This document shows, piece by piece, positions 6,279 through 63,141 of a DNA stretch of 64,000 bases. This DNA comes from Bryobacterales bacterium (lineage in GTDB: Bacteria; Acidobacteriota; Terriglobia; Bryobacterales; UBA6623). The stretch covers positions 6,543,391 through 6,607,390 of the forward strand of contig OZ252029.1 of NCBI GenBank assembly GCA_965247515.1, written 5' to 3'. The translations under genes and the position numbers were made by a program. Below the pieces are notes generated by a model. That model was given only the letters and a program-made list of their open reading frames with translations. It had not been told where the DNA came from and searched no databases. The first letter of the stretch is position 1; each line of letters begins with the position of its first letter.

Positions 6279-8918
6279 CTAGCGTTGAATTTGCACCAGG
6301 CCCACCGCCTCGATCGTGCGCTCGCCAATGGTGAGTTTCACGGTCACCGCTCCGGTCTCGAGATCCGGGGGAAGCCGAATATTGATTTGGAGCAGCCCCA
6401 CCAACCCCGGCGTTAGCCCCACAAAAGCGATGTCGGCGGGGCGCCCATCGACCTCCACGCTGACGTCCAGGAGCGGCGAAGGGAGCGGCAACACCGATGG
6501 GGATGGGGCGCCGGTCAGGAGTGGTTGGTTCATCAGGCCCTGGCCGTTCGCGAACAAGACCACTAACTGACTCGGGCGCGCCCGGTTCGCGTTGCTGTTC
6601 ACGCTGCTGTCTTGATTCAGAACCGCTCCAAACAGCCCGGGGTCGGATTCCCTGACGGGCAGCTCAACCCGAGAGCTCACCTGACCGTCAAACTCCACCC
6701 GGATCTCGACAACCTGCGCGCCGGCGACCTCGAACGGAACTTGGCAGTTGATCTGATCGGACCTCACGAAAAACAGGGGCGCGGGGACGCCGTTGAAGAA
6801 CACCGTTACACCGGCGAACGTCGTTGGCAGCCGGCCGGTAGCGGGATCGAAACCGGGAGACACCCCGTCTCTAGGCCCGATTCTCACGCCGAAAATGGAC
6901 ACGATCTGCCCCGGAGCGACGCCGCCGCCCTCGAAGCTAGCCGCGTTGACGATGCCGCGGGAGCTAATCTGGGTTCTGGCCGCGGTGGGTTCCCACGATG
7001 CGCCGGCGTTGACGGTCTTCCAGACGCCGCCGGCGACAACCGAGGCGTAGACCACGCCCGAGCTCCGCGGGTCCGCGACCAGACGCTGAACCGTTCGCCC
7101 ATCTAGTCCGGTATTGGTCGAGTTCCAGGTGCGGCCATGGTCGTCGCTTCGCGCTACTCCAAAACTGGTCGCCGCATAGACTGCGCCGCTGCTCGGATCG
7201 ATTGCGAACGCCTGCGCGATGAAAGTATCGCTAGGAAAGCCGCCGTTGCTAATCACAACGTTTTCGCCGCGGTCTTCGGTCAGCAGAATGCCAAAGCCAG
7301 CCGAGCCGATGAAAACGCGGCGCCCATCGGTTGGATCAACCTCCAAGGCAAGAATCGCCGGCGCCGCGCCGCCCTGTTGAAAATCCTCGGCCTCGTTGTC
7401 GCTCGCCAAGAATAGCCATGAACCGAACGACTCCGCCGCAACGTAGATGTTTCTCCCATTGCTCGGATCAATCGCGATTTGGGCCACGCTCTGCCCCGCA
7501 AGTACAAATCGGTCATCCAGAAAGGCGTCGAAGCTGTCGGCCCGATCGCGCGACCGGAACAGCCCCGTGGTCAACAGGAACCGGTTGCCCGGCGTGCCGA
7601 CCCAAACCGTTCGTCCGTCGCTAGGATGCACGGCGAGCGATTGGACGCCGAATCCCACCTGGACGGCGCCCCAATTTGCGCCGCCGTCAACGCTTCTCGA
7701 TAGAGCGCCGTCATTGGGATTGGTTGGACTCGTGGACCCAACATAGAGCACCTGAGGGTTCGTCGGATCGATCTCGAGGACTCGCGGACTGGTGTGCCGA
7801 AAGCCGTTGCCGGAGTCGAACCAGGAGTCTCCGCCGTCGAGCGACTTGAACATCCTCCCCCCATCCATTCCGGCGTAGAGAGTCGTTGGCGTCTGCGGAT
7901 CGATGGCGAGGCTCAACACGTTGGCGCCGTCGAGACCGGTCGAGCTGGCGACCCAGTTCGCCCCTTGATCGGAGGTCAAGTACACTCCCGAGCCCCCCGC
8001 GCCCATCAGGACTCGGGCGGGTTCGCCGGGCAAAGCTTGGAGTGAAAAAGGAAACGCCAGAGGAAGCCCATTGGAGATCTGGGCATACGTTGCGCCGCCA
8101 TCGCGACTGATCAGCATGCCAAGGTCTTCCGAAGCCGCGTAGAGCACCATACTGTCGGTCGCGTCGAACTCGATATCGAAGTACGAAAGCGCCCCAGCGC
8201 CGGCGACCTGCTCGAACGGTTGTCCCGCGGCGAGACGACGAATCATCCCCTGGCTCGTCGTGCAGTAAACGATGTTGGAGTCGTTGGGGTCGAAGCGGAT
8301 TTTCCGAAACGCCGCCGGCCCGGCGGCCGCCGCCTGCCAGATCAAGCCGCCGTCAACGCTTTCAAAAAATGCGCCGGCGGCGGAAGCGGCGTAGACCAGA
8401 TCGGAGTTATTCGGGTCGATCGCGAGGTCAAGATAGGCGCCGGCTATCAGGCCTGTCCCGGCGCGGATCCAGCCGTCCGCTGAGTTGTCGGAGAAAAAGA
8501 CGCCATCGGCGCGAGTGCCGGCGAATAAGACGTTCGGCCGTTGAGGGTCGTTGGCGACCGAGAGCACCTGCAGGTCGCCGATGCCGTCGCTGGTGAGCTC
8601 CCAGACGCCGCCGTCACGCGATCGGAAAACTCCGCCGCCGTCGAGCGCCGCGAAAAGCTGGGCCGGGCTGCCGCTCAGCGCCACGACGGGGAGTCTCGGC
8701 AGGCCGTCGCGCATCGCGGCCCAGGTGTCGCCTGAATCGTCGCTGCGAAACACGCCGGCGCTGGTCGCGGCGTAAACCAATCCAGGCTGGGCGTCGACTG
8801 CTAGGAAGTCGCTGACGGTCGCGCCAGGGGGGCCGGCCTGTCCGAATACGCTCGCGGCGGCCAAGAAAACAGCAAACCAAACAGTGAGCAACTTCGTTAG
8901 TACCTGTGGAGAGGGCAT
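6279..8918 (-). CDS. Large secreted BNR/sortilin-like beta-propeller repeat protein with a Solibacter-type C-terminal domain (TIGR03437-like)
   Basis: Many S-x-D-x-G-x-T-W type repeats (SDDSGDTWAAM, SRDGGATYAQI, SLDGGDSWFDS, SVDGGANWGAV, SDDHGRTWNST). C-terminus IVNAASFEGGGVAPGQIVSIFG...APLFFVRSDQINCQVPFEV...PGLVGLLQINIRLP. Start set at ATG 8918 (MPSPQVLTKLLTVWFAVFLAAASVFGQ). Confidence 0.8.
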   Translation of the reverse strand: MPSPQVLTKLLTVWFAVFLAAASVFGQAGPPGATVSDFLAVDAQPGLVYAATSAGVFRSDDSGDTWAAMRDGLPRLPVVALSGSPAQLFAALDGGGVFRSRDGGVWELTSDGIGDLQVLSVANDPQRPNVLFAGTRADGVFFSDNSADGWIRAGTGLIAGAYLDLAIDPNNSDLVYAASAAGAFFESVDGGLIWQAAAAGPAAFRKIRFDPNDSNIVYCTTSQGMIRRLAAGQPFEQVAGAGALSYFDIEFDATDSMVLYAASEDLGMLISRDGGATYAQISNGLPLAFPFSLQALPGEPARVLMGAGGSGVYLTSDQGANWVASSTGLDGANVLSLAIDPQTPTTLYAGMDGGRMFKSLDGGDSWFDSGNGFRHTSPRVLEIDPTNPQVLYVGSTSPTNPNDGALSRSVDGGANWGAVQVGFGVQSLAVHPSDGRTVWVGTPGNRFLLTTGLFRSRDRADSFDAFLDDRFVLAGQSVAQIAIDPSNGRNIYVAAESFGSWLFLASDNEAEDFQQGGAAPAILALEVDPTDGRRVFIGSAGFGILLTEDRGENVVISNGGFPSDTFIAQAFAIDPSSGAVYAATSFGVARSDDHGRTWNSTNTGLDGRTVQRLVADPRSSGVVYASVVAGGVWKTVNAGASWEPTAARTQISSRGIVNAASFEGGGVAPGQIVSIFGVRIGPRDGVSPGFDPATGRLPTTFAGVTVFFNGVPAPLFFVRSDQINCQVPFEVAGAQVVEIRVEFDGQVSSRVELPVRESDPGLFGAVLNQDSSVNSNANRARPSQLVVLFANGQGLMNQPLLTGAPSPSVLPLPSPLLDVSVEVDGRPADIAFVGLTPGLVGLLQINIRLPPDLETGAVTVKLTIGERTIEAVGLVQIQR

Positions 8919-15244: not shown

Positions 15245-15335
15245 CCGGAGCCGCGCGCGTAAGCAAGCGGTTGCTTGAAGTTGCTGACCGGGCCGCTTGT
15301 TCTAGCAACCGCTCCCTTAACGGTCGCGGCTCCGG
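15245..15335. repeat. REP family C hairpin (CCGGAGCCGCG[CGCG/ACCG]T.AG...GCGGTTGC arms)
   Basis: Left arm 15245-15274 is CCGGAGCCGCGCGCGTAAGCAAGCGGTTGC. Right arm 15305-15335 is GCAACCGCTCCCTTAACGGTCGCGGCTCCGG. The arms are imperfectly complementary. Confidence 0.8.
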
Positions 15336-15642
15336 CCAGACCGCCATGGGCTGGCCCTGTCCCTCGAGCACATATCGAATTGCGTGCAAGACTGGTTCGC
15401 GGCCGTTGATCCGTCTAGTGCTACCGATATTTGCAAACGTCGATGATTGCGCGGAGGACGATCGCGCGGCAGGTCGCGTTTAGGCTGTAGGGCCGTTCTT
15501 TCATCAGCCTGTGCGCGGTTTCATAGCGGGGTTCATCCTCTGGCGGCAGCCATGATCCGGGTAGGTTGTGAAGGCGATCGATTGACCCGCGCTCTTCGCC
15601 GTGAAAGTTGCTTGTCGACGAGCGCCGGGCACGAGCGTTTCT
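15336..15642 (-). pseudogene. Internally deleted remnant of a RAYT-like (IS200/Y1-type, REP-associated) transposase
   Basis: N-terminal piece ...ERPYSLNATCRAIVLRAIIDVCKYR* stops exactly where this family normally continues RGW.LLA.HVR.NHVH.VV (the HUH motif). A different frame about 30 nt downstream reads ...VLHAIRYVLEGQGQPMAVW, which resembles the family C-terminus. REP hairpins flank it on both sides. The family consensus is recalled from memory, not searched. Confidence 0.4.
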
Positions 15643-15730
15643 CGGAGCCGCGCGCGTCAGCAAGCGGTTGCCAGAGTAAGCGACTCAGCTGTGAACTCCA
15701 GCAACCGCTTGCTCACGCGCGCGGCTCCGG
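15643..15730. repeat. REP family C hairpin, near-perfect
   Basis: CGGAGCCGCGCGCGTCAGCAAGCGGTTGC ... GCAACCGCTTGCTCACGCGCGCGGCTCCG: 29-bp arms with one mismatch and a 30-nt loop. Confidence 0.85.
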
Positions 15731-15747
15731 GTCATACAATACGCTAG

Positions 15748-20949: not shown

Positions 20950-21189
20950 GTGAGCCGTGAGCCGCAAACCGTGAGCCGTAGCACCCGCGGCGCCCGTCGT
21001 CGAAAGACGATTGACCGCCGACCGCTGAGCTGACCCAACGCGACAGAGCCCCTGACCTGAGCCGCGACCGGCAGGGAGCGTTTCCGATCGGAGGCCGCCC
21101 TACGAAAGTCTGGACCATGAGCCAGAACCGCGACCTCACCCGCTCAGGCCGGCTCACGGCTTAGCGCAGCGGACGGTTCACGGCTCACG
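20950..21189. repeat. About 240-bp region bounded by inverted GTGAGCCG-type repeat blocks
   Basis: Left block GTGAGCCGTGAGCCGCAAACCGTGAGCCG (20950-20978). Right block CGGCTCACGGCTTAGCGCAGCGGACGGTTCACGGCTCACG (21150-21189). The 18-mer GCTTAGCGCAGCGGACGG (21159-21176) is the reverse complement of 2751-2768. Confidence 0.6.
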
Positions 21190-29990: not shown

Positions 29991-30023
29991 CGGCGCTATC
30001 TTTTGCGGAACCCGCCGGGACCG

Positions 30024-30134
30024 CAAGGGAGTGCCCCATGGGCCTGACTGCCCACCCAAAGCGATGAAAACGGTCGCCCCGGAGCCGCGACCGTGAGGGA
30101 GCGGTTGTCGCAGCCGGGGACAACCGCTTGCTCA
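30024..30134. repeat. Left part of composite repeat D (REP family C type), interrupted by the IS1182 copy
   Basis: GCAAGGGAGT...GATGAAAACGGTCGCCCCGGAGCCGCGACCGTGAGGGAGCGGTTGTCGCA...CAACCGCTTGCTCA aligns with 50440-50548. Confidence 0.65.
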
Positions 30135-32030
30135 GGGGCCGTGAAGAAAACCTATTGTCGCGTCGGCGCGCGGGAGCGCCAAGCGCACGCCAAGCTCAGC
30201 GCTGCCGAACGCCGCCCCTGCCGAAACCGCAACTTCTGCGCCTCGACTCCTGATTGACCGCCTGAGCGGCCCGGAAACGGTCGTTTCGGGCCGTTTCCCG
30301 GCCCTTTTCGCCCCCCCCACCGCCGCTACGCCGCCGCTTGCGCCGCCAGCCCGCACTCGGGCCCACGACGCCAGACCAGCCGGATCCAAGCCGCAATGTT
30401 GTACGCCAAAACCCCCCACAAAAGCTCCGATCGCGCCTTCCGCAGCCCTCGTACTCGAAACTTGCGCACCCCCAATCGCTCTTTCAACCAGGCGTTCGGA
30501 AACTCCGCCGTCTCGGACCGCTTGCGATACGCCGCCCGCCCACGCTCGCTCTCCATCCAGCGCCGATGTTTCGCCATCACCGCGTTCTCTTCGCTGCGGC
30601 TCAACGTTCGATGACCGCTCTTGGGGCAGCACTTGTGCCGCTGTGCGCATTCGCGACAATCAGATGCTTTTGCCTGATACTGCCGATATTTGCGCTTCCG
30701 CTTCAGCGACGATCGCTGATACGTCAAGGTCCGCTGGGCCGGACACAGAAACGTGTCCGTCGCCTCGTCGTAGATGAAAAACTTCGGCGCGTAGCGCGGC
30801 CCAATTCCCGCCGCCTTCAACGCCGCCTTCGAGCCCTTGTCCGGCGCCGGCGCCGGCGTCGCGTATTCGATTTCAGCGGCTGCCAGCGCCTCGATGTTGG
30901 CCTGGTTGGCGTAGCCCCCGTCCGCTAACACTTGCTTCGGGGTTCGCTCGAAGCGCCCTTCCACATCGTCCAGCGTCGGGGTCAGCTGGCCCGCATCGGA
31001 GGCGTTGTTGGTCAACTCCACGCCGACCACGATCTTCTCTTTGGCGTCGGTCGCCAGCTGCGCGTTGTAGCCGAGTCCCCAACCGCCGTTGGATTCGTGT
31101 TGCGGGCGCGCTTCCGGCTCGCTCTCGCTCACCCGCGCCTGGCGTCGTTGCTCTTCGTCGCGCTTGCCCGCTTCGACCTTGGGCAGTTCCTCCAGCGCCT
31201 GCTCCATCCGCTCGACTCGCTCCCGCAAGGTCCGCTTACGCGCCGCCTGACGCCGCCGATTCGAACCTTCGTCGTCGGCTTCTTCCGAGAGTTGACGCAC
31301 CGCTTCGCGCGCTTGTTCGAGATGCCGCTCGAGCGTCGGACGCCTGCGTTGCGACCCGCCCGAGGCTTGCGCCCGGATCCGCGTGCCGTCGACGGCCACC
31401 TGCTCGAGATCCACCAGCCCCTCTTGACTCAGCAGCGCCAATACCTGTGTCAACAAGTTCTCGAGAGCTTTTGAGTGGAATACCCGAAAATCCGAAAGAG
31501 TGTGATGATTGACGACCGCCATGCCGCACAACCACTCCAACTCCGGCCGATAGCGGCTTTGACGCGCGATCTCACGCGCCGAGCTCATCCTTTCCGAATA
31601 CGCCCAGATCCAGATCGCGACCAGCAACCGCGGATCCCATGCCGGCCGCCCGGCGGACTCCTTGCGGGTTTCCAGATGAGCAGCGAAGCCGGACAGGTCG
31701 AGCATGCCGCTCAGCTCCCAGACGGCGCGCACCAGATGGTCGGCCGGCACGAGCCGTTCGACGTCGATCGCGGCATAGGTGAATTGGTCGCGATTGGGCT
31801 GTCGCAGCTGCAGTTGGTCAACGGGCACGGCTTGGCGCGGCTTGGCGGGGCGTTGCTCGAGCTCGACTAAGACCTGTTGTTCGCCCATATAATAAGGGCG
31901 TTGGACGCCGCCGCCAAGTTATCCGAACATTCGTTTGCCCTCATGTTTTATCCCATTTTGATCCACTCGCGCCATTCCGAACCGCCCCAGGGGAGCTTCG
32001 GCGGCCACGACGGGTTTATTTCACAGCCCC
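30135..32030 (-). mobile_element. IS1182-family insertion sequence (~1.9 kb)
   Basis: Terminal inverted repeats GGGGCCGTGAAGAAAACC (30135-30152) and GGGTTTATTTCACAGCCCC (32012-32030) enclose a single transposase gene. It splits a repeat that is intact at 50440-50632. Confidence 0.8.
30326..31888 (-). CDS. IS1182-family DDE transposase
   Basis: 520 aa. ...VPADHLVRAVWELSGMLDLS...GRPAWDPRLLVAIWIWAY...VAVDGTRIRA...VLADGGYAN...CRECAQRHKCC...ETAEFPNAWLKERLGVRKFRVRGL are layout and motifs typical of IS1182/IS5-like transposases. Confidence 0.85.
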   Translation of the reverse strand: MGEQQVLVELEQRPAKPRQAVPVDQLQLRQPNRDQFTYAAIDVERLVPADHLVRAVWELSGMLDLSGFAAHLETRKESAGRPAWDPRLLVAIWIWAYSERMSSAREIARQSRYRPELEWLCGMAVVNHHTLSDFRVFHSKALENLLTQVLALLSQEGLVDLEQVAVDGTRIRAQASGGSQRRRPTLERHLEQAREAVRQLSEEADDEGSNRRRQAARKRTLRERVERMEQALEELPKVEAGKRDEEQRRQARVSESEPEARPQHESNGGWGLGYNAQLATDAKEKIVVGVELTNNASDAGQLTPTLDDVEGRFERTPKQVLADGGYANQANIEALAAAEIEYATPAPAPDKGSKAALKAAGIGPRYAPKFFIYDEATDTFLCPAQRTLTYQRSSLKRKRKYRQYQAKASDCRECAQRHKCCPKSGHRTLSRSEENAVMAKHRRWMESERGRAAYRKRSETAEFPNAWLKERLGVRKFRVRGLRKARSELLWGVLAYNIAAWIRLVWRRGPECGLAAQAAA

Positions 32031-32120
32031 ATAGAGGGCGGCTCCGGGGCCGCGGCGCATTCCGCGGTGGTCGGCGGTCGGCAGTCAGCGGGTTTTCGAC
32101 AGAGCGGGTTCCGCAATCTG
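32031..32120. repeat. Right part of composite repeat D, displaced by the IS1182 insertion
   Basis: ...GCGGCTCCGGGGCCGCGGCGCATTCCGCGGTGGTCGGCGGTCGGCAGTCAGCGGGTTTTCGACAGAGCGGGTTCCGCAATC aligns with 50556-50632. Confidence 0.65.
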
Positions 32121-34147: not shown

Positions 34148-34487
34148 TCGCAGGGGCGCGACATGTCGCGCCCTTATGCTAATACTCGTTACTTAAGAGC
34201 CGGCGGTTGTTGAAGTTTGCGGAACCCGCTCCCTAGCGGTCGCGGCTCTGACTTCGCGAGTCAAACGTCAACCGAAGGGCGTCAGAGCCGCGACCGCTAG
34301 GGAGCGGGTTCCGCGCCTTCCCGACATACCCAGCTACACCTCAACCGACGCTTAAGTAACGAGTATTAGCCCTTATGCTGGTGGCCGAGATGAGAACATG
34401 GAGCCGTCGACGTGCCTGCATTTGGGTTTCACCAAGGTTTTGCCGAAAGGGCAGGTTGAAGGGCGCGACATGTCGCGCCCTTGCGCC
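34148..34487. repeat. Composite repeat B, copy 2, carrying a nested 188-bp insertion
   Basis: Bounded by GGGCGCGACATGTCGCGCCC at 34154-34173 and 34461-34480. After removing 34181-34368 and one direct-repeat copy, it aligns along its length with 6118-6262. Confidence 0.7.
34181..34368. mobile_element. 188-bp MITE-like palindromic element flanked by an 11-bp direct repeat
   Basis: Direct repeats GCCCTTATGCT at 34170-34180 and 34369-34379. Outer inverted repeats AATACTCGTTACTTAAG / CTTAAGTAACGAGTATT. Inner perfect 34-bp inverted repeat GCGGAACCCGCTCCCTAGCGGTCGCGGCTCTGAC (34219-34252 / 34281-34314). Confidence 0.7.
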
Positions 34488-50335: not shown

Positions 50336-50439
50336 CGGCGGGCTGTCGAGACCTTAGCGCCGACGTCCGCATATACGATGACGTATCCAGGTCTTTGCGG
50401 CTCTGAAACCTGCGATTCAAAGGTTGTCAGCGCGCGACT

Positions 50440-50632
50440 GCAAGGGAGTATCTGATGGCCTCACAGGCCACCCATGAGGATGAAAACGGTTGCCCCGGAG
50501 CCGCGACCGTGAGGGAGCGGTTGTCGCAACCTCGAGCAACCGCTTGCTGACGCGCGCGGCTCCGGGGCGGTGGCGCATTCGGTCGGCGGTCGGCGGTCAG
50601 CGGGTTTTCGACGCAGCGGGTTCCGCAATCCG
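50440..50632. repeat. Composite repeat D, intact copy (~190 bp)
   Basis: GCAAGGGAGT...GATGAAAACGGTTGCCCCGGAGCCGCGACCGTGAGGGAGCGGTTGTCGCAACCTCGAGCAACCGCTTGCTGACGCGCGCGGCTCCGGGGCGG...CAGCGGGTTTTCGACGCAGCGGGTTCCGCAATC is colinear with 30024-30134 plus 32031-32120. Confidence 0.7.
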
Positions 50633-55867: not shown

Positions 55868-55922
55868 CGGAGCCGCGACCGGAAGGGAGCGGTTGCCTGA
55901 GACTCCGGCAACCGCTTGCTCA
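55868..55922. repeat. REP family C unit forming the left flank of the MITE
   Basis: CCGGAGCCGCGACCGGAAGGGAGCGGTTGCCTGAGACTCCGGCAACCGCTTGCTCA. The complementary tail TTCCGGTCGCGGCTCC follows the MITE at 56073-56088. Confidence 0.75.
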
Positions 55923-56072
55923 GGGGCTGTGAAAAAATCGCCCGTTGAGCGCGAAAGACGGGCGAGGCATGCGTCGCCCCTACCGACGATCGTTTGTTTT
56001 CAACGACGTAGGGGCTTGGCATGCCAAGCCCGTCTTGCCGGAATTGGATCCCCGACATTTTTTCACAGCCCC
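55923..56072. mobile_element. 150-bp MITE sharing terminal inverted repeats with the IS1182-family element
   Basis: Termini GGGGCTGTGAAAAAATCG / CGACATTTTTTCACAGCCCC, compared with IS termini GGGGCCGTGAAGAAAACC / GGGTTTATTTCACAGCCCC. The interior is palindromic and includes a REP-A copy (GGGCGAGGCATGCGTCGCCC). There is no coding capacity. Confidence 0.7.
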
Positions 56073-60446: not shown

Positions 60447-62037
60447 TGGAGTGAACCCCAAGCGTGAGACAGTCGAAATCGGGACAGGTTACGATTCACC
60501 GCAAAACGCTTGCCTTCTTCGCTGTATCGTCGCACGCTGGTCCTAGCCGGGGAAGCGGAAACGGGCTCTGCTGGAGAGCAACCCGCCAAGGAATACCCGG
60601 CCGCAAACTCATCAAGACGATGAGCGCCGGGGGCGGCCGCCAAGGTCGCTCCCGGCTTCTCCAACGCCGGCGATGTCTCCCTGCCCGCCCAGGGCCCATC
60701 GGATTGATAGATTTGCCTATGCCTCTCAAAACTCATACTTCGGATTCCTCGCTGCTGTTGCCGCCGGCCGCGCCAGCGCTTCAAACTCCGCCGGCGGACG
60801 ATATCCCAACGCCGAATGCAGCCGGCGTTGGTTGTAGATCTCATCAATGAACTCGCCGATCGATGCGCGCGCCTCGTCAAGCGTGCGATAACGCTGCAAC
60901 CAAACCTCCTCCGCCTTCAACGTCTTCATGAAACTCTCCGCCCGCGCGTTGTCGTAGGGGTTGCCGCGGCGGCTCATCGAGATGATCGCGCCGTGCTGCT
61001 CCAGCAGCTCGACATAGGCGCTCGAAGCGTACTGTACGCCTTGGTCGGAATGATGCATCCACCCCGCGGCAGGGCGTCTGAGCTCGAGCGCATCGCGCAA
61101 CGCCCCTACAGCCAGCTCAGCTTTGAGCGTCGTCCCCAGCCGCCAGCCGACCACGCGTCGCGAGTAGGCGTCCAACACCACGGCGAGGTAGACGAACGCC
61201 TCGCGCAAGCGAATGTAGGTGATATCGGATTGCCACAACTGATCGACGCCGTCCACATTCAGGTGCGCCGCTAGATTCGGATAAACAGGTAAGAAGTGGT
61301 TCGAATCCGTTGTTAGCACGAAGCGCCGCTTGAGTACCGCCAGCAAGTTGTCCTTACGCATCATCCGCAGGACCTTTTTGTGATTGACGAGGAAGCCTTG
61401 GCGGCGCAGCTCGGCCGTCACGCGGCGGTAGCCGCAACGACGATTCTCGAGCGAAATCCGCTGCATGCGGTCACGCAATTCCATGTCGCACTCGGCGGGC
61501 GACGACACGGCGAGCCGGCGATAGAACCCGGCGCGATTCACGCGTCCGAGCTCGCAGGCGTGTTCGACGCTGAGCGAGCCTTTGGCGCTGATCTGCTCGA
61601 CGATGGAGTAGATCCGCTCGCGCCACCGGCGTCGTTGGTCGGGGCTGCGAGGTTCAAGGCGCGAAAGGCTTGTCCGAAAAAATCGAGCTCTGCGGCTTGT
61701 TTGCCGAGCAGTCGTTCGAGCTCTGCGATGCGTTCGTCGCGCGGATCGCGAGGGATCTTGGGCGGCGCCGAGCGGCCGGGTTTCGGCCGGCCTCGCCGCC
61801 GGCTCAAGCCGTTGACGCCTTCCTGGCGATAGGCGTCCCGCCAGCGGTACAGCAGGCTGCGCTTGACGTCCAACTCGCGGCTTAGCGCTGTGCCGCTCTG
61901 GCCGGCTAGGAGCCGCCTGGCGGCGGCTTCCTTGAACTCCCGCGGCTTGCGCGGCTTGAGACTTTCCATCCTGGACTCCTTTCCATTCGCTGAAATTCGT
62001 CCCAAATTTCAATGTCTCATTTTTAGGGTTCACTCCA
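60447..62037 (-). mobile_element. IS3-family insertion sequence, copy B (1591 bp) with a 3-bp target-site duplication ATT
   Basis: Same termini as copy A. ATT at 60444-60446 and at 62038-62040. It differs from copy A by a 12-bp indel in orfA and a few substitutions. Confidence 0.9.
60726..61969 (-). CDS. IS3-family transposase OrfAB (programmed -1 frameshift)
   Basis: orfA MESLKPRKPREFKEAAARRLL... lacks the TVEF of copy A. The orfB translation is identical to copy A in the ORF track. Confidence 0.85.
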
Positions 62038-62040
62038 ATT

Positions 62041-62228
62041 TGTCCCAGGTGAATCGCCGCCACAGTTAGGGCGCGCCTTTGAAACGCCTGCTTGGCGAGA
62101 TTCGCTTCCTCTCGAATCTTGCGAAATGCGGCATCTGAATCGGAACGCAGGAATCTCCAAACGGTAATGCAGCTCCCCGCAGCTCCAAACAGTCCCAAGA
62201 CGATTCCTAAGAAGCTCACGAAGTCCAT
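62041..62228 (-). pseudogene. 5' part of a small membrane-protein ORF interrupted by IS3 copy B
   Basis: MDFVSFLGIVLGLFGAAGSCITVWRFLRSDSDAAFRKIREEANLAKQAFQRRALTVAAIHLGQ then reads into the IS end. Removing the IS and one ATT keeps an open frame to 60176, but the distal coding frame is ambiguous. Confidence 0.35.
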
Positions 62229-63101: not shown

Positions 63102-63141
63102 GCGGAACCCGCTCCCTTTCGGTCGCGGCTCTGACGCCGCG
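63102..63141. repeat. Solo half of the GCGGAACCCGCTCCCT..CGGTCGCGGCTCTGAC repeat
   Basis: GCGGAACCCGCTCCCTTTCGGTCGCGGCTCTGACGCCGCG matches one arm of the 34-bp inverted repeat at 34219-34252, with no partner arm nearby. Confidence 0.6.

Follow-up and report, generated by a model that had tools for sequence, protein, structure and literature searches.

The 1896 bp at positions 30135-32030 of the window, as we call the whole 64,000-nt stretch of Bryobacterales DNA analyzed here, are most probably (with a probability of roughly 85%, judged from sequence comparison) a copy of a recently active, high-copy insertion sequence (IS) of the IS1182 family that inserts with specificity for a REP-like palindromic repeat. 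The target would be a T-N-A triplet that centers a pseudo-symmetric unit (A/G)R-CCGC-N4-5-TNA-N4-5-GCGG-Y, with the canonical form GGAGCCGCG-NNCG-TNA-G-NN-AGCGGTTG. Two inverted units would build a hairpin of 70-90 nt with their TNAs opposite each other. In the proposed mechanism, a DDE transposase makes 3-bp staggered cuts at TNA and gap repair then yields TNA[IS]TNA, with insertion in both orientations as a two-fold-symmetric target predicts. In a composite element of ~190 bp, the window copy would have struck the TNA of the 3' arm, and the composite at 50.4-50.6 kb would be a like target that is empty in the window strain. The features on which this model is based are listed in Table 1.

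Table 1. Positions of the insertion sequence, its split and uninterrupted targets and the REP-like units in the window.
Feature	Position	Strand	Basis or remark
Three unoccupied REP units, cluster	15248-15727		15248-15270 (+), 15645-15667 (+), 15705-15727 (-)
Degenerate REP unit, center GCA	21059-21081	+	Unit pattern match
Left part of split composite REP element, including inner hairpin	30016-30134	+	Colinearity with 50-kb element
Intact 5'-arm REP unit in left part	30082-30104		Center TGA at 30094-30096
Left copy of 3-bp target duplication, TCA	30132-30134	+	L034/L035/L037 read TCA[IS]TCA at the orthologous insertion
IS1182-family insertion sequence, 1896 bp	30135-32030	-	Full-length 99.2-99.7% matches to 29 other copies
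Terminal inverted repeat, transposase 3' end: GGGGCCGTGAAGAAAACC	30135-30152	.	Direct reading; 15/18 against reverse complement of other end
Transposase gene, 520 aa	30326-31888	-	Pfam DUF772, DDE_Tnp_1, DDE_Tnp_1_6; NCBIfam NF033551
Terminal inverted repeat, transposase 5' end: GGTTTATTTCACAGCCCC	32013-32030	.	Direct reading
Altered right junction ATAGAGG	32031-32037	+	Sibling strains TCACGCGC or TTACGCGC
Right part of split composite: outer 3' arm GCGGCTCCGGGGC and outer extension	32038-32118	+	Colinearity with 50-kb element
Two unoccupied REP units, non-TNA center (CTA)	34226-34307	.	Unit pattern match
Uninterrupted composite element	50433-50630	+	Core hairpin 50490-50575; REP units 50498-50520 (+), 50540-50562 (-)
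Empty target triplet TGA	50548-50550	+	Filled in other strains
REP unit, 5' arm of hairpin hit by MITE	55870-55892	+	Unit pattern match
150-bp MITE, ends as in IS	55923-56072	.	Further copies L011 2099-2248, L010 644-793, flanked by REP TNA
REP unit, center AAA	63109-63131	-	Unit pattern match

The element is filled by a single open reading frame, whose product combines an N-terminal DUF772 domain with DDE_Tnp_1 / DDE_Tnp_1_6 and matches the IS1182 equivalog model NF033551 over its full length (404.8 bits, cutoff 270; residues 31-503 against model positions 2-487/488). The models for IS5, ISNCY, IS1634 and IS1380 all score under their respective cutoffs. In the ISfinder classification, members of the IS1182 family measure ~1.3-1.95 kb, and both the length of the element and its 18-bp inverted repeats fit this family. 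At least ten of the other full-length copies align with it from end to end, and its length is that of the initial annotation, which had likewise named the IS1182 family and 1896 bp. The window holds one copy only. A cluster representative that is 100% identical to the transposase lies on a contig of 9,113,711 bp, and the 90%-identity clusters contain 147 and 48 protein variants. Scans with the transposase of genome and metagenome contig collections that do not include the window's own genome returned distant or fragmentary relatives only. A resemblance between the IS ends and REP halves was also considered and set aside as too weak, the common elements being GGG/CCC and a CCGTGA hexamer only.

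The copies of this IS occupy one defined position. The survey covers 30 full-length copies at no fewer than 28 separate sites; their upstream flanks come in 30 different sequences and their downstream flanks in 28. Every one of these copies lies between REP halves in the same register, the occupied site being the TNA at the center of a REP-like unit GAGCCGCG-NNCG-TNA-G-NN-AGCGG. TNA borders the element upstream in 29/30 copies and downstream in 29/30, and is found on at least one side of every occupied site. The duplication is identical on both sides in 21 copies, each time as TNA, while the flanking triplets differ in the other nine, among them the window copy (TCA ... ATA). Across the loci, 61 distinct REP units are unoccupied and 32 of these have a TNA center; units with another center are never occupied (Fisher p = 5e-7 for TNA in occupied versus unoccupied units, and p = 3e-5 with matched duplications only). 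The sample consists of closely related metagenome-assembled strains, so that some insertions are shared by descent. The initial annotation had asked for such a survey of IS copies and had named insertions into unrelated sequence as evidence against its reading; none was encountered. An account without any real target preference, in which the IS inserts anywhere and survives only in harmless REP spacers, could draw on the intergenic position of all copies and on the plausible neutrality of REPs. Yet the insertions fall on the same triplet every time with single-nucleotide precision, one TGA (at 50 kb) received independent insertions of opposite orientation in different strains, and REPs account for only a minor part of intergenic DNA (~12 units in 62 kb of the window). 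Such an account is highly improbable and effectively refuted. The constant REP position of the insertions, the independent hits on one site and the enrichment of TNA place the element among the REP-targeting ISs.

Target and element can be told apart by comparing empty and filled alleles of the 50-kb composite. Its TGA is empty in three strains (the window strain, L045 and L049), and in other strains the orthologous triplet carries an IS in either orientation or two ISs: L042/L043 read TGA[IS-]TGA, L047 reads TTA[IS+]TGA, and a double IS is present in L048/L025 and L044. The 50.5-kb copy, proposed earlier as an internal empty-site control, is thus a stronger control than claimed, since orthologous loci carry the IS exactly at TGA with the TGA duplicated. 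The same alleles refute the idea that the IS brings its REP-like flanks along as a part of the mobile unit, to which we attach practically no weight. Such flanks are indeed present at every copy, but their type and orientation vary (outer or inner half on either side), 61 REP units exist without an IS, and the unit is continuous in empty alleles, with a single TNA in place of the two of filled alleles. The element has moved recently: presence/absence polymorphism among near-identical strains, together with an inter-copy identity of 99.2-99.7%, suggests at the sequence level that the transposase is active. The outer parts of the 190-bp composite, searched in all loci, recur nowhere but at the two window loci and the corresponding loci of other strains, apart from a partial match in L010; hence only the core of the composite is a high-copy repeat. 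An Rfam search of the whole window at gathering thresholds gave no match, and the composite is therefore not a known RNA family.

At 30 kb, both flanks of the IS align in the same order and orientation with this one uninterrupted element (30016-30132 versus 50433-50548, 82.9% over 117 nt, E 3e-29; 32038-32118 versus 50556-50630, 86.4% over 81 nt, E 3e-23). This colinearity bears out the claim of the initial annotation that the IS lies inside a REP-type composite element, and the junction strings quoted there are correct. The insertion point, however, is not loop-proximal as stated there but lies in mid-stem, at the sole mismatch, which sets the outer stem of the long hairpin apart from the inner one. 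The junction itself, then left undecided, proves to be a 3-bp TNA duplication, and the mismatched bases reported there are real and correspond to a change private to the window strain. In the sibling strains L034/L035/L037 the orthologous insertion reads GCTTGC-TCA[IS]TCA-CGCGCGCGG, a clean 3-bp duplication; on the right side of the window copy, an 8-to-7-base change affects the right triplet and the next five bases in the window strain alone. Because the three siblings keep the perfect TCA duplication, the junction state of the window is derived and arose after insertion. We consider it very unlikely that the mismatch instead reflects an IS1272-like insertion that deleted or replaced target bases. 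A right junction without matching triplet and one base short of expectation would suit such an event, and target deletion has a precedent in the IS1182 family, but the orthologous insertion of the siblings shows the perfect duplication in an otherwise identical flank. A search for the 30-kb site in its empty state was negative, as the strains sampled, with all long contigs among them, carry the IS throughout.

We infer that the odd right junction of the window and the other mismatched duplications probably go back to gene conversion or recombination between IS copies, with co-conversion of the homologous REP flank. In support of co-conversion, L047 departs from the empty allele both in the center of the duplication and in the adjacent hairpin loop, several loci have just one flank in common, and the genes on the left side differ between L035 and L036. 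The ATAGAGG junction resembles the TTA-GAGGGCGG flank of IS copy L021.

The 23-nt pattern of the REP unit matches 11 times in the window, against 0.42 matches expected from shuffles. Taken singly, units have folding energies of -5.5 and -5.1 kcal/mol (z +0.1 and +1.3) and are no stable palindromes as expected of a REP, having only a weak CCGC...GCGG symmetry. Since its fold is no better than that of shuffles, the single unit was discarded as the principal hairpin, and with it an insertion into the apical loop. The stable structure is the doublet. The second and third units of the 15-kb cluster form a near-perfect 31-bp stem with its sole mismatch at the TNA center (-44.7 kcal/mol, z -10.3), and the core hairpin of the 50-kb composite, folded as single-stranded DNA, reaches -38.2 kcal/mol (z -6.3). 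The transposase might accordingly recognize not the bases but the extruded hairpin or cruciform with its mismatched TNA·TNA step, as has been proposed for IS1272. IS1272 and TnSha1 enter hairpins without a primary-sequence consensus (PMC4923244, PMC5678879), the folds of the REP doublets are much more stable than those of shuffled sequences, the TNA coincides exactly with the one mismatch (T and A paired, N unpaired), and the sites L008 and L027b (outer arm-TAA[IS]TTA-outer arm) resemble a replaced inner hairpin. We nevertheless regard structure-dependent targeting as rather doubtful. Insertion of IS1272 removes the stem-loop in part or completely and leaves no duplication, whereas the insertions studied here preserve the arms and duplicate 3 bp; REP units of the same fold with a non-TNA center are never occupied; one primary sequence is common to all targets; and L008-type sites are explicable by an L020-like double insertion followed by IS-IS recombination. 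The transposase probably reads the symmetry of the duplex sequence and not the extruded hairpin. Recognition of sequence and of structure are inseparable here because every target has both, and both could contribute, which makes structural recognition partly compatible with the sequence-specific REP targeting that we favor.

The REP target is shared with other elements. The MITE carries a 15-bp perfect terminal inverted repeat equal to the IS end and occurs in three full copies (95-100% identity), all at REP TNA. It has the properties of an IS derivative, being short, non-coding and multicopy, with IS terminal repeats and the same target and duplication. A second, related IS uses the same REP target, and relatives that are 66-69% identical and have the same target are present on Bryobacterales MAG contigs L001 and L003 and on the unassigned metagenome contig L004, with insertion sites of the form GCTTGC TGA[IS]TGA CGTGCGCGGCT. 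A more speculative and unlikely extension is that the IS stands between canonical DDE insertion and the stem-loop replacement of IS1272. It would then recognize the TNA·TNA mismatch step in extruded REP cruciforms and produce, depending on the strands attacked, a 3-bp duplication or a replacement of the inner hairpin (L008-type), with REPs, MITE and two IS species forming one co-evolving Bryobacterales system. The IS would, in that case, not only exploit the repeats but also remodel them by double insertions, composite IS-hairpin-IS units and co-conversion of flanks.

This is a clear case of a site-specific IS, though not an unprecedented one, as REP-targeting ISs and palindrome-targeting members of IS1182 are already known. 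Its value lies in an unusually clean natural data set on target choice in a poorly studied family, with dozens of copies on one triplet, empty and filled alleles in sibling strains, and a MITE and a second IS sharing the target. The sequence CCGC-N4-5-TNA-N4-5-GCGG is defined and directly testable in vitro. In addition, IS and REPs together drive strain-level rearrangement, as seen in shared single flanks, double insertions and remnants, a principle that is not new.

Among the known REP-targeting elements, the transposase's own role in target choice has been shown experimentally for IS1397, ISKpn1 and IS621, and IS110-type elements are RNA-guided DEDD recombinases with an unrelated mechanism. 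The elements described comprise IS1397 and ISKpn1 (IS3), IS621, ISPpu9, ISPpu10 and ISPa11 (IS110), ISRm22 (IS4), ISRm5 (IS256) and ISNm1106 (IS5) (Tobes and Pareja, 2006; PMC1525189), as well as an IS481-family element of P. fluorescens SBW25 (PMC11708052). A bioRxiv/mBio paper that mentions both IS1182 and REP actually concerns IS481 and IS5. In common with these systems, (nearly) all copies of the IS described here sit at a single fixed point within repeated extragenic palindromes, the insertions are intergenic and of the 'safe-haven' type, and REP clusters alongside act as recombination substrates. In contrast, IS1182 is absent from the five families of PMC1525189 and the host here belongs to Bryobacterales, the nearest named homologues pointing to a Bryobacterales-like acidobacterium. 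REP targeting thereby reaches a sixth or seventh IS family and, given this host assignment, the Acidobacteriota. The target also differs, being a TNA that coincides with the mismatch in a long REP doublet and is duplicated as 3 bp.

TNA or YTAR targets are used by the IS1031 and IS427 groups of the IS5 family in the ISfinder classification. These groups share with our element a short T-A-centered duplication and DDE transposases related to those of IS1182, as reflected in weak hits of IS5 models, which for the window transposase stay below the cutoffs for membership. These IS5 elements are not reported to depend on a surrounding REP context.

REPINs and BIMEs are REP doublets mobilized by RAYT transposases (PMC3116915, PMC3333891, PMC2817692). 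The repeat described here is likewise a short, GC-rich and abundant intergenic unit, usually arranged in inverted doublets that fold into long hairpins, but differs in the poor folding of its single unit and in showing the conserved GTAG/CGTC tag only inconsistently. No RAYT gene was seen, and the gene tables retrieved for the loci list no Y1_Tnp domain, a sample that is uninformative for a once-per-genome gene.

The closest parallel within the family is provided by IS1272/TnSha1 of staphylococci, which belong to IS1182 and insert in both orientations into palindromic, hairpin-forming targets (PMC4923244, PMC5678879); that palindromes are targeted by some IS1182 members is also stated by Siguier et al. 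(2015), as quoted in these two papers. The targets of IS1272 have no common sequence, and the stem-loop is partly or wholly deleted without duplication. The IS of the window instead targets one repeat family and, as the comparison of empty and filled alleles demonstrates, retains both arms of the hairpin and duplicates the 3 bp of TNA.

The insertion sequence at 30 kb (main IS) carries an 18-bp terminal inverted repeat with 15 of 18 positions matched, and its transposase combines the Pfam domains DUF772, DDE_Tnp_1 and DDE_Tnp_1_6. Its assignment to the IS1182 family in the initial annotation was confirmed by a full-length match to the NCBIfam IS1182 equivalog (404.8 bits; cutoff 270), and every score against the IS5, ISNCY, IS1634 and IS1380 models stayed below the respective cutoff. 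The window contains one copy. Another 29 full-length copies on contigs of sibling strains align end to end with it at 99.2-99.7% identity, which fixes its boundaries.

Positions of the elements and alleles of the TGA triplet in the uninterrupted 50.5-kb element (window coordinates unless a comparison locus, L, is named)
Feature	Position	Strand	Size or state	Details
IS1182-family IS (main IS)	30135-32030		1896 bp, discrete	termini GGGGCCGTGAAGAAAACC (start) / GGTTTATTTCACAGCCCC (end), plus strand
Transposase ORF	31888..30326	minus	520 aa	single ORF occupying main IS
MITE	55923-56072		150 bp	perfect 15-bp ends, identical to IS end
Second IS	L016 880-2355; L019 880-2355; L036 (beside main IS)			ends CAGCCCGTGG...CCACGGGCTG
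TGA triplet	50548-50550		empty	window, L045, L049
TGA triplet	50548-50550		TGA[IS, minus orientation]TGA	L042, L043
TGA triplet	50548-50550		TTA[IS, plus orientation]TGA	L047
TGA triplet	50548-50550		TGA[IS]TGA-55 bp-TGA[IS]TGA	L048
TGA triplet	50548-50550		double IS as in L048, other inner triplets (TAA/TTA vs TGA/TGA)	L044
TGA triplet	50548-50550		135-bp IS remnant, 3' arm lost	L046

As initially described, both flanks of main IS are colinear with one uninterrupted stretch at 50.4-50.6 kb, in the same order and on the same strand: positions 30016-30132 match 50433-50548 (82.9% identity, 117 nt) and 32038-32118 match 50556-50630 (86.4% identity, 81 nt); the junction strings quoted at that time are correct on re-reading. 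The core shared by the two elements is a unit of 23-32 nt with the canonical form GGAGCCGCG-NNCG-TNA-G-NN-AGCGGTTG, which may be called REP-like or REPIN-like; an Rfam search of the window returned no match. Its 23-nt pattern occurs 11 times in the window versus 0.42 expected from shuffles, and the units are mostly arranged as inverted doublets. The outer 60 nt per side, which extend the element to a composite of ~190 bp, are confined to the two window loci, their orthologues and, in part, L010. As single-stranded DNA, the doublets at 50490-50575 and 15640-15735 fold with -38.2 and -44.7 kcal/mol (z -6.3 and -10.3 versus shuffled controls), while a lone unit folds no better than chance. Within the hairpin, TNA lies opposite TNA across the arms with T and A paired and the middle base mismatched, and this central mismatch separates the outer stem (GGAGCCGCG) from the inner stem (AGCGGTTG). 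This places the insertion mid-stem, away from the loop, and the loop-proximal position first proposed does not hold. The doublet at 15640-15735 is near-perfect, with a 31-bp stem whose sole mismatch is the C·C at its TCA/TCA centre; it is unoccupied and represents the same kind of site as main IS uses.

Near-identical transposases, grouped at 90% identity into clusters with 147 and 48 protein variants, gave access to long-read metagenome contigs of sibling strains, yielding 30 copies including that of the window. REP-unit halves are present on both sides and in the same register in 30/30, and the flanks comprise 30 different upstream and 28 different downstream sequences; the survey of copies that the initial annotation had suggested thus finds all of them REP-inserted. 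Junctions have the general form TNA-IS-TNA, the triplets match on both sides in 21 copies (TTA 10, TAA 6, TGA 4, TCA 1), and the IS lies in one or the other orientation to the unit with roughly equal frequency. Each flank, when read in the direction of the triplet, contains (A/G)R-CCGC-N4-5, which makes CCGC-N4-5-TNA-N4-5-GCGG a pseudo-symmetric target. No occupied site lacks TNA on both sides (29/30 for the upstream and 29/30 for the downstream flanks), and the 21 matched duplications are without exception TNA, whereas of 61 different unoccupied units in the retrieved sequences only 32 have a TNA centre, the other 29 being chiefly GAA, CAA, GCA, GGA and CTA (Fisher p 5e-7; 3e-5 with matched duplications only).

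The uninterrupted 50.5-kb copy, put forward earlier as an internal control, is indeed a true empty site whose TGA is filled in sibling strains. L025/L048 is orthologous to this locus, with 100% DNA identity in the adjoining 527-aa gene and almost identical flanks. The filled alleles amount to at least three independent insertions at one TGA triplet, and the occurrence of both empty and filled states proves a 3-bp target duplication. Together with the single-nucleotide precision of insertion, these alleles refute both random insertion with a pattern created by selective survival alone and the idea that the REP flanks travel with the IS. In L046, 135 bp of the IS 5' end (6786-6920; ~50530-50570 in the window) stand in place of the hairpin 3' arm, constituting an IS-associated deletion allele of this site. 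L025/L048 and L044 carry two ISs in direct orientation around an inner REP hairpin of 55 bp, which the empty allele lacks, with TGA outside; this arrangement looks like a composite transposon (IS-hairpin-IS) from a donor like L020, in which both hairpin arms are occupied.

At the 30-kb locus all orthologues contain the IS. L034, L035 and L037 read CAACCGCTTGC-TCA-IS-TCA-CGCGCGCGGCTCC, a clean duplication, and the empty site reconstructed from them differs from the 50.5-kb element only at the triplet's middle base. The right junction ATAGAGG-GCGGCTCC is unique to the window, with seven bases in place of eight and the remaining flank unchanged. The mismatch that had left the target change unclear is thus a later, strain-private alteration rather than a property of the insertion, and the effect of the insertion on its target can now be read as a 3-bp duplication. 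The replacement ATAGAGG is similar to the TTA-GAGGGCGG flank of the IS copy L021. In L047 the altered triplet is accompanied by an altered hairpin loop; L016/L019/L030, L015/L018 and L008/L027b have one flank only in common; and left of the orthologous IS in L035 and L036, OMP/PycTM or Peptidase_M19/Vsr gene sets replace the Ser/Thr kinase of window 26.6-30.1 kb, which indicates that the IS marks the breakpoint of rearrangements. All three observations suggest that IS copies exchange sequence by recombination or gene conversion, and we infer that such exchange extends into the homologous REP flank, accounting for the mismatched triplets in 9 of the 30 copies. Among strains, the middle base differs at orthologous insertions, TCA/TTA on the right of L034-L040 (TTA in L038, L039 and L040) and TGA/TTA on the left of L047, within DNA that is ~100% identical; the suspected cause is co-conversion with further IS copies that have REP flanks.

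Other elements use this target as well. The MITE occupies the TNA position of another REP doublet with unequal triplets (GCTTGC-TCA-MITE-TTC-CGGTCGCGGCTCC); further copies in L011 (2099-2248) and L010 (644-793) each lie at a REP TNA, and partial copies occur in L023, L024 and L031. The second IS, encoding a 464-471-aa transposase with the DUF772/DDE domain make-up of main IS, adjoins the same REP TNA triplets in L016, L019 and L036, often in tandem with main IS. Relatives with 66-69% protein identity from two contigs of one Bryobacterales MAG (L001 2918-4766, L003 2918-4755) and an unassigned metagenome contig (L004 484-2303) show junctions such as GCTTGC-TGA-IS-TGA-CGTGCGCGGCT; in another Bryobacterales MAG, a relative with 47% identity (L002 2918-4753) has TCA/TGA flanks and no clear REP context. 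GGGGCYGTGAA ends are kept in all four, and the target CCGCTTRC-TGA-IS-TGA-SGTGCGCGGCT in three. The common target of the MITE, the second IS and the L001, L003 and L004 relatives argues that target choice is a property of this IS clade. The host itself is probably an uncultured bacterium of the Bryobacterales or a related lineage, since its Lhr helicase has the nearest named homologues (66-68% identity) in Bryobacteraceae/Bryobacterales. The window also encodes an IS3-like transposase (60726-62228, minus strand; 500 aa, HTH_21 and rve integrase core), ~0.9 kb from the REP unit at 63109-63131.

The best-supported account for main IS is 3-bp staggered cutting at a REP-selected TNA: the transposase would choose TNA via the symmetric REP context, its DDE activity would cut there with a 3-bp stagger, and gap repair would duplicate the triplet. 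Recognition of the structure itself, as argued for the IS1182-family element IS1272, is the alternative and may contribute because TNA sits at the sole mismatch of a very stable hairpin. Yet IS1272 inserts into hairpins of unrelated sequence and removes the stem-loop without duplication (PMC4923244, PMC5678879), whereas main IS retains the arms, duplicates 3 bp and spares non-TNA units. Our search of a limited literature turned up no IS1182-family element described as targeting one REP family with TNA duplication; palindrome targeting is on record for some IS1182 members (PMC4923244, PMC5678879), and REP-targeting ISs are known from the IS3, IS110, IS4, IS256 and IS5 families (PMC1525189) and from an IS481 element (PMC11708052). 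Main IS is well supported as a further member of this known REP-targeting class, rather than as a new principle.
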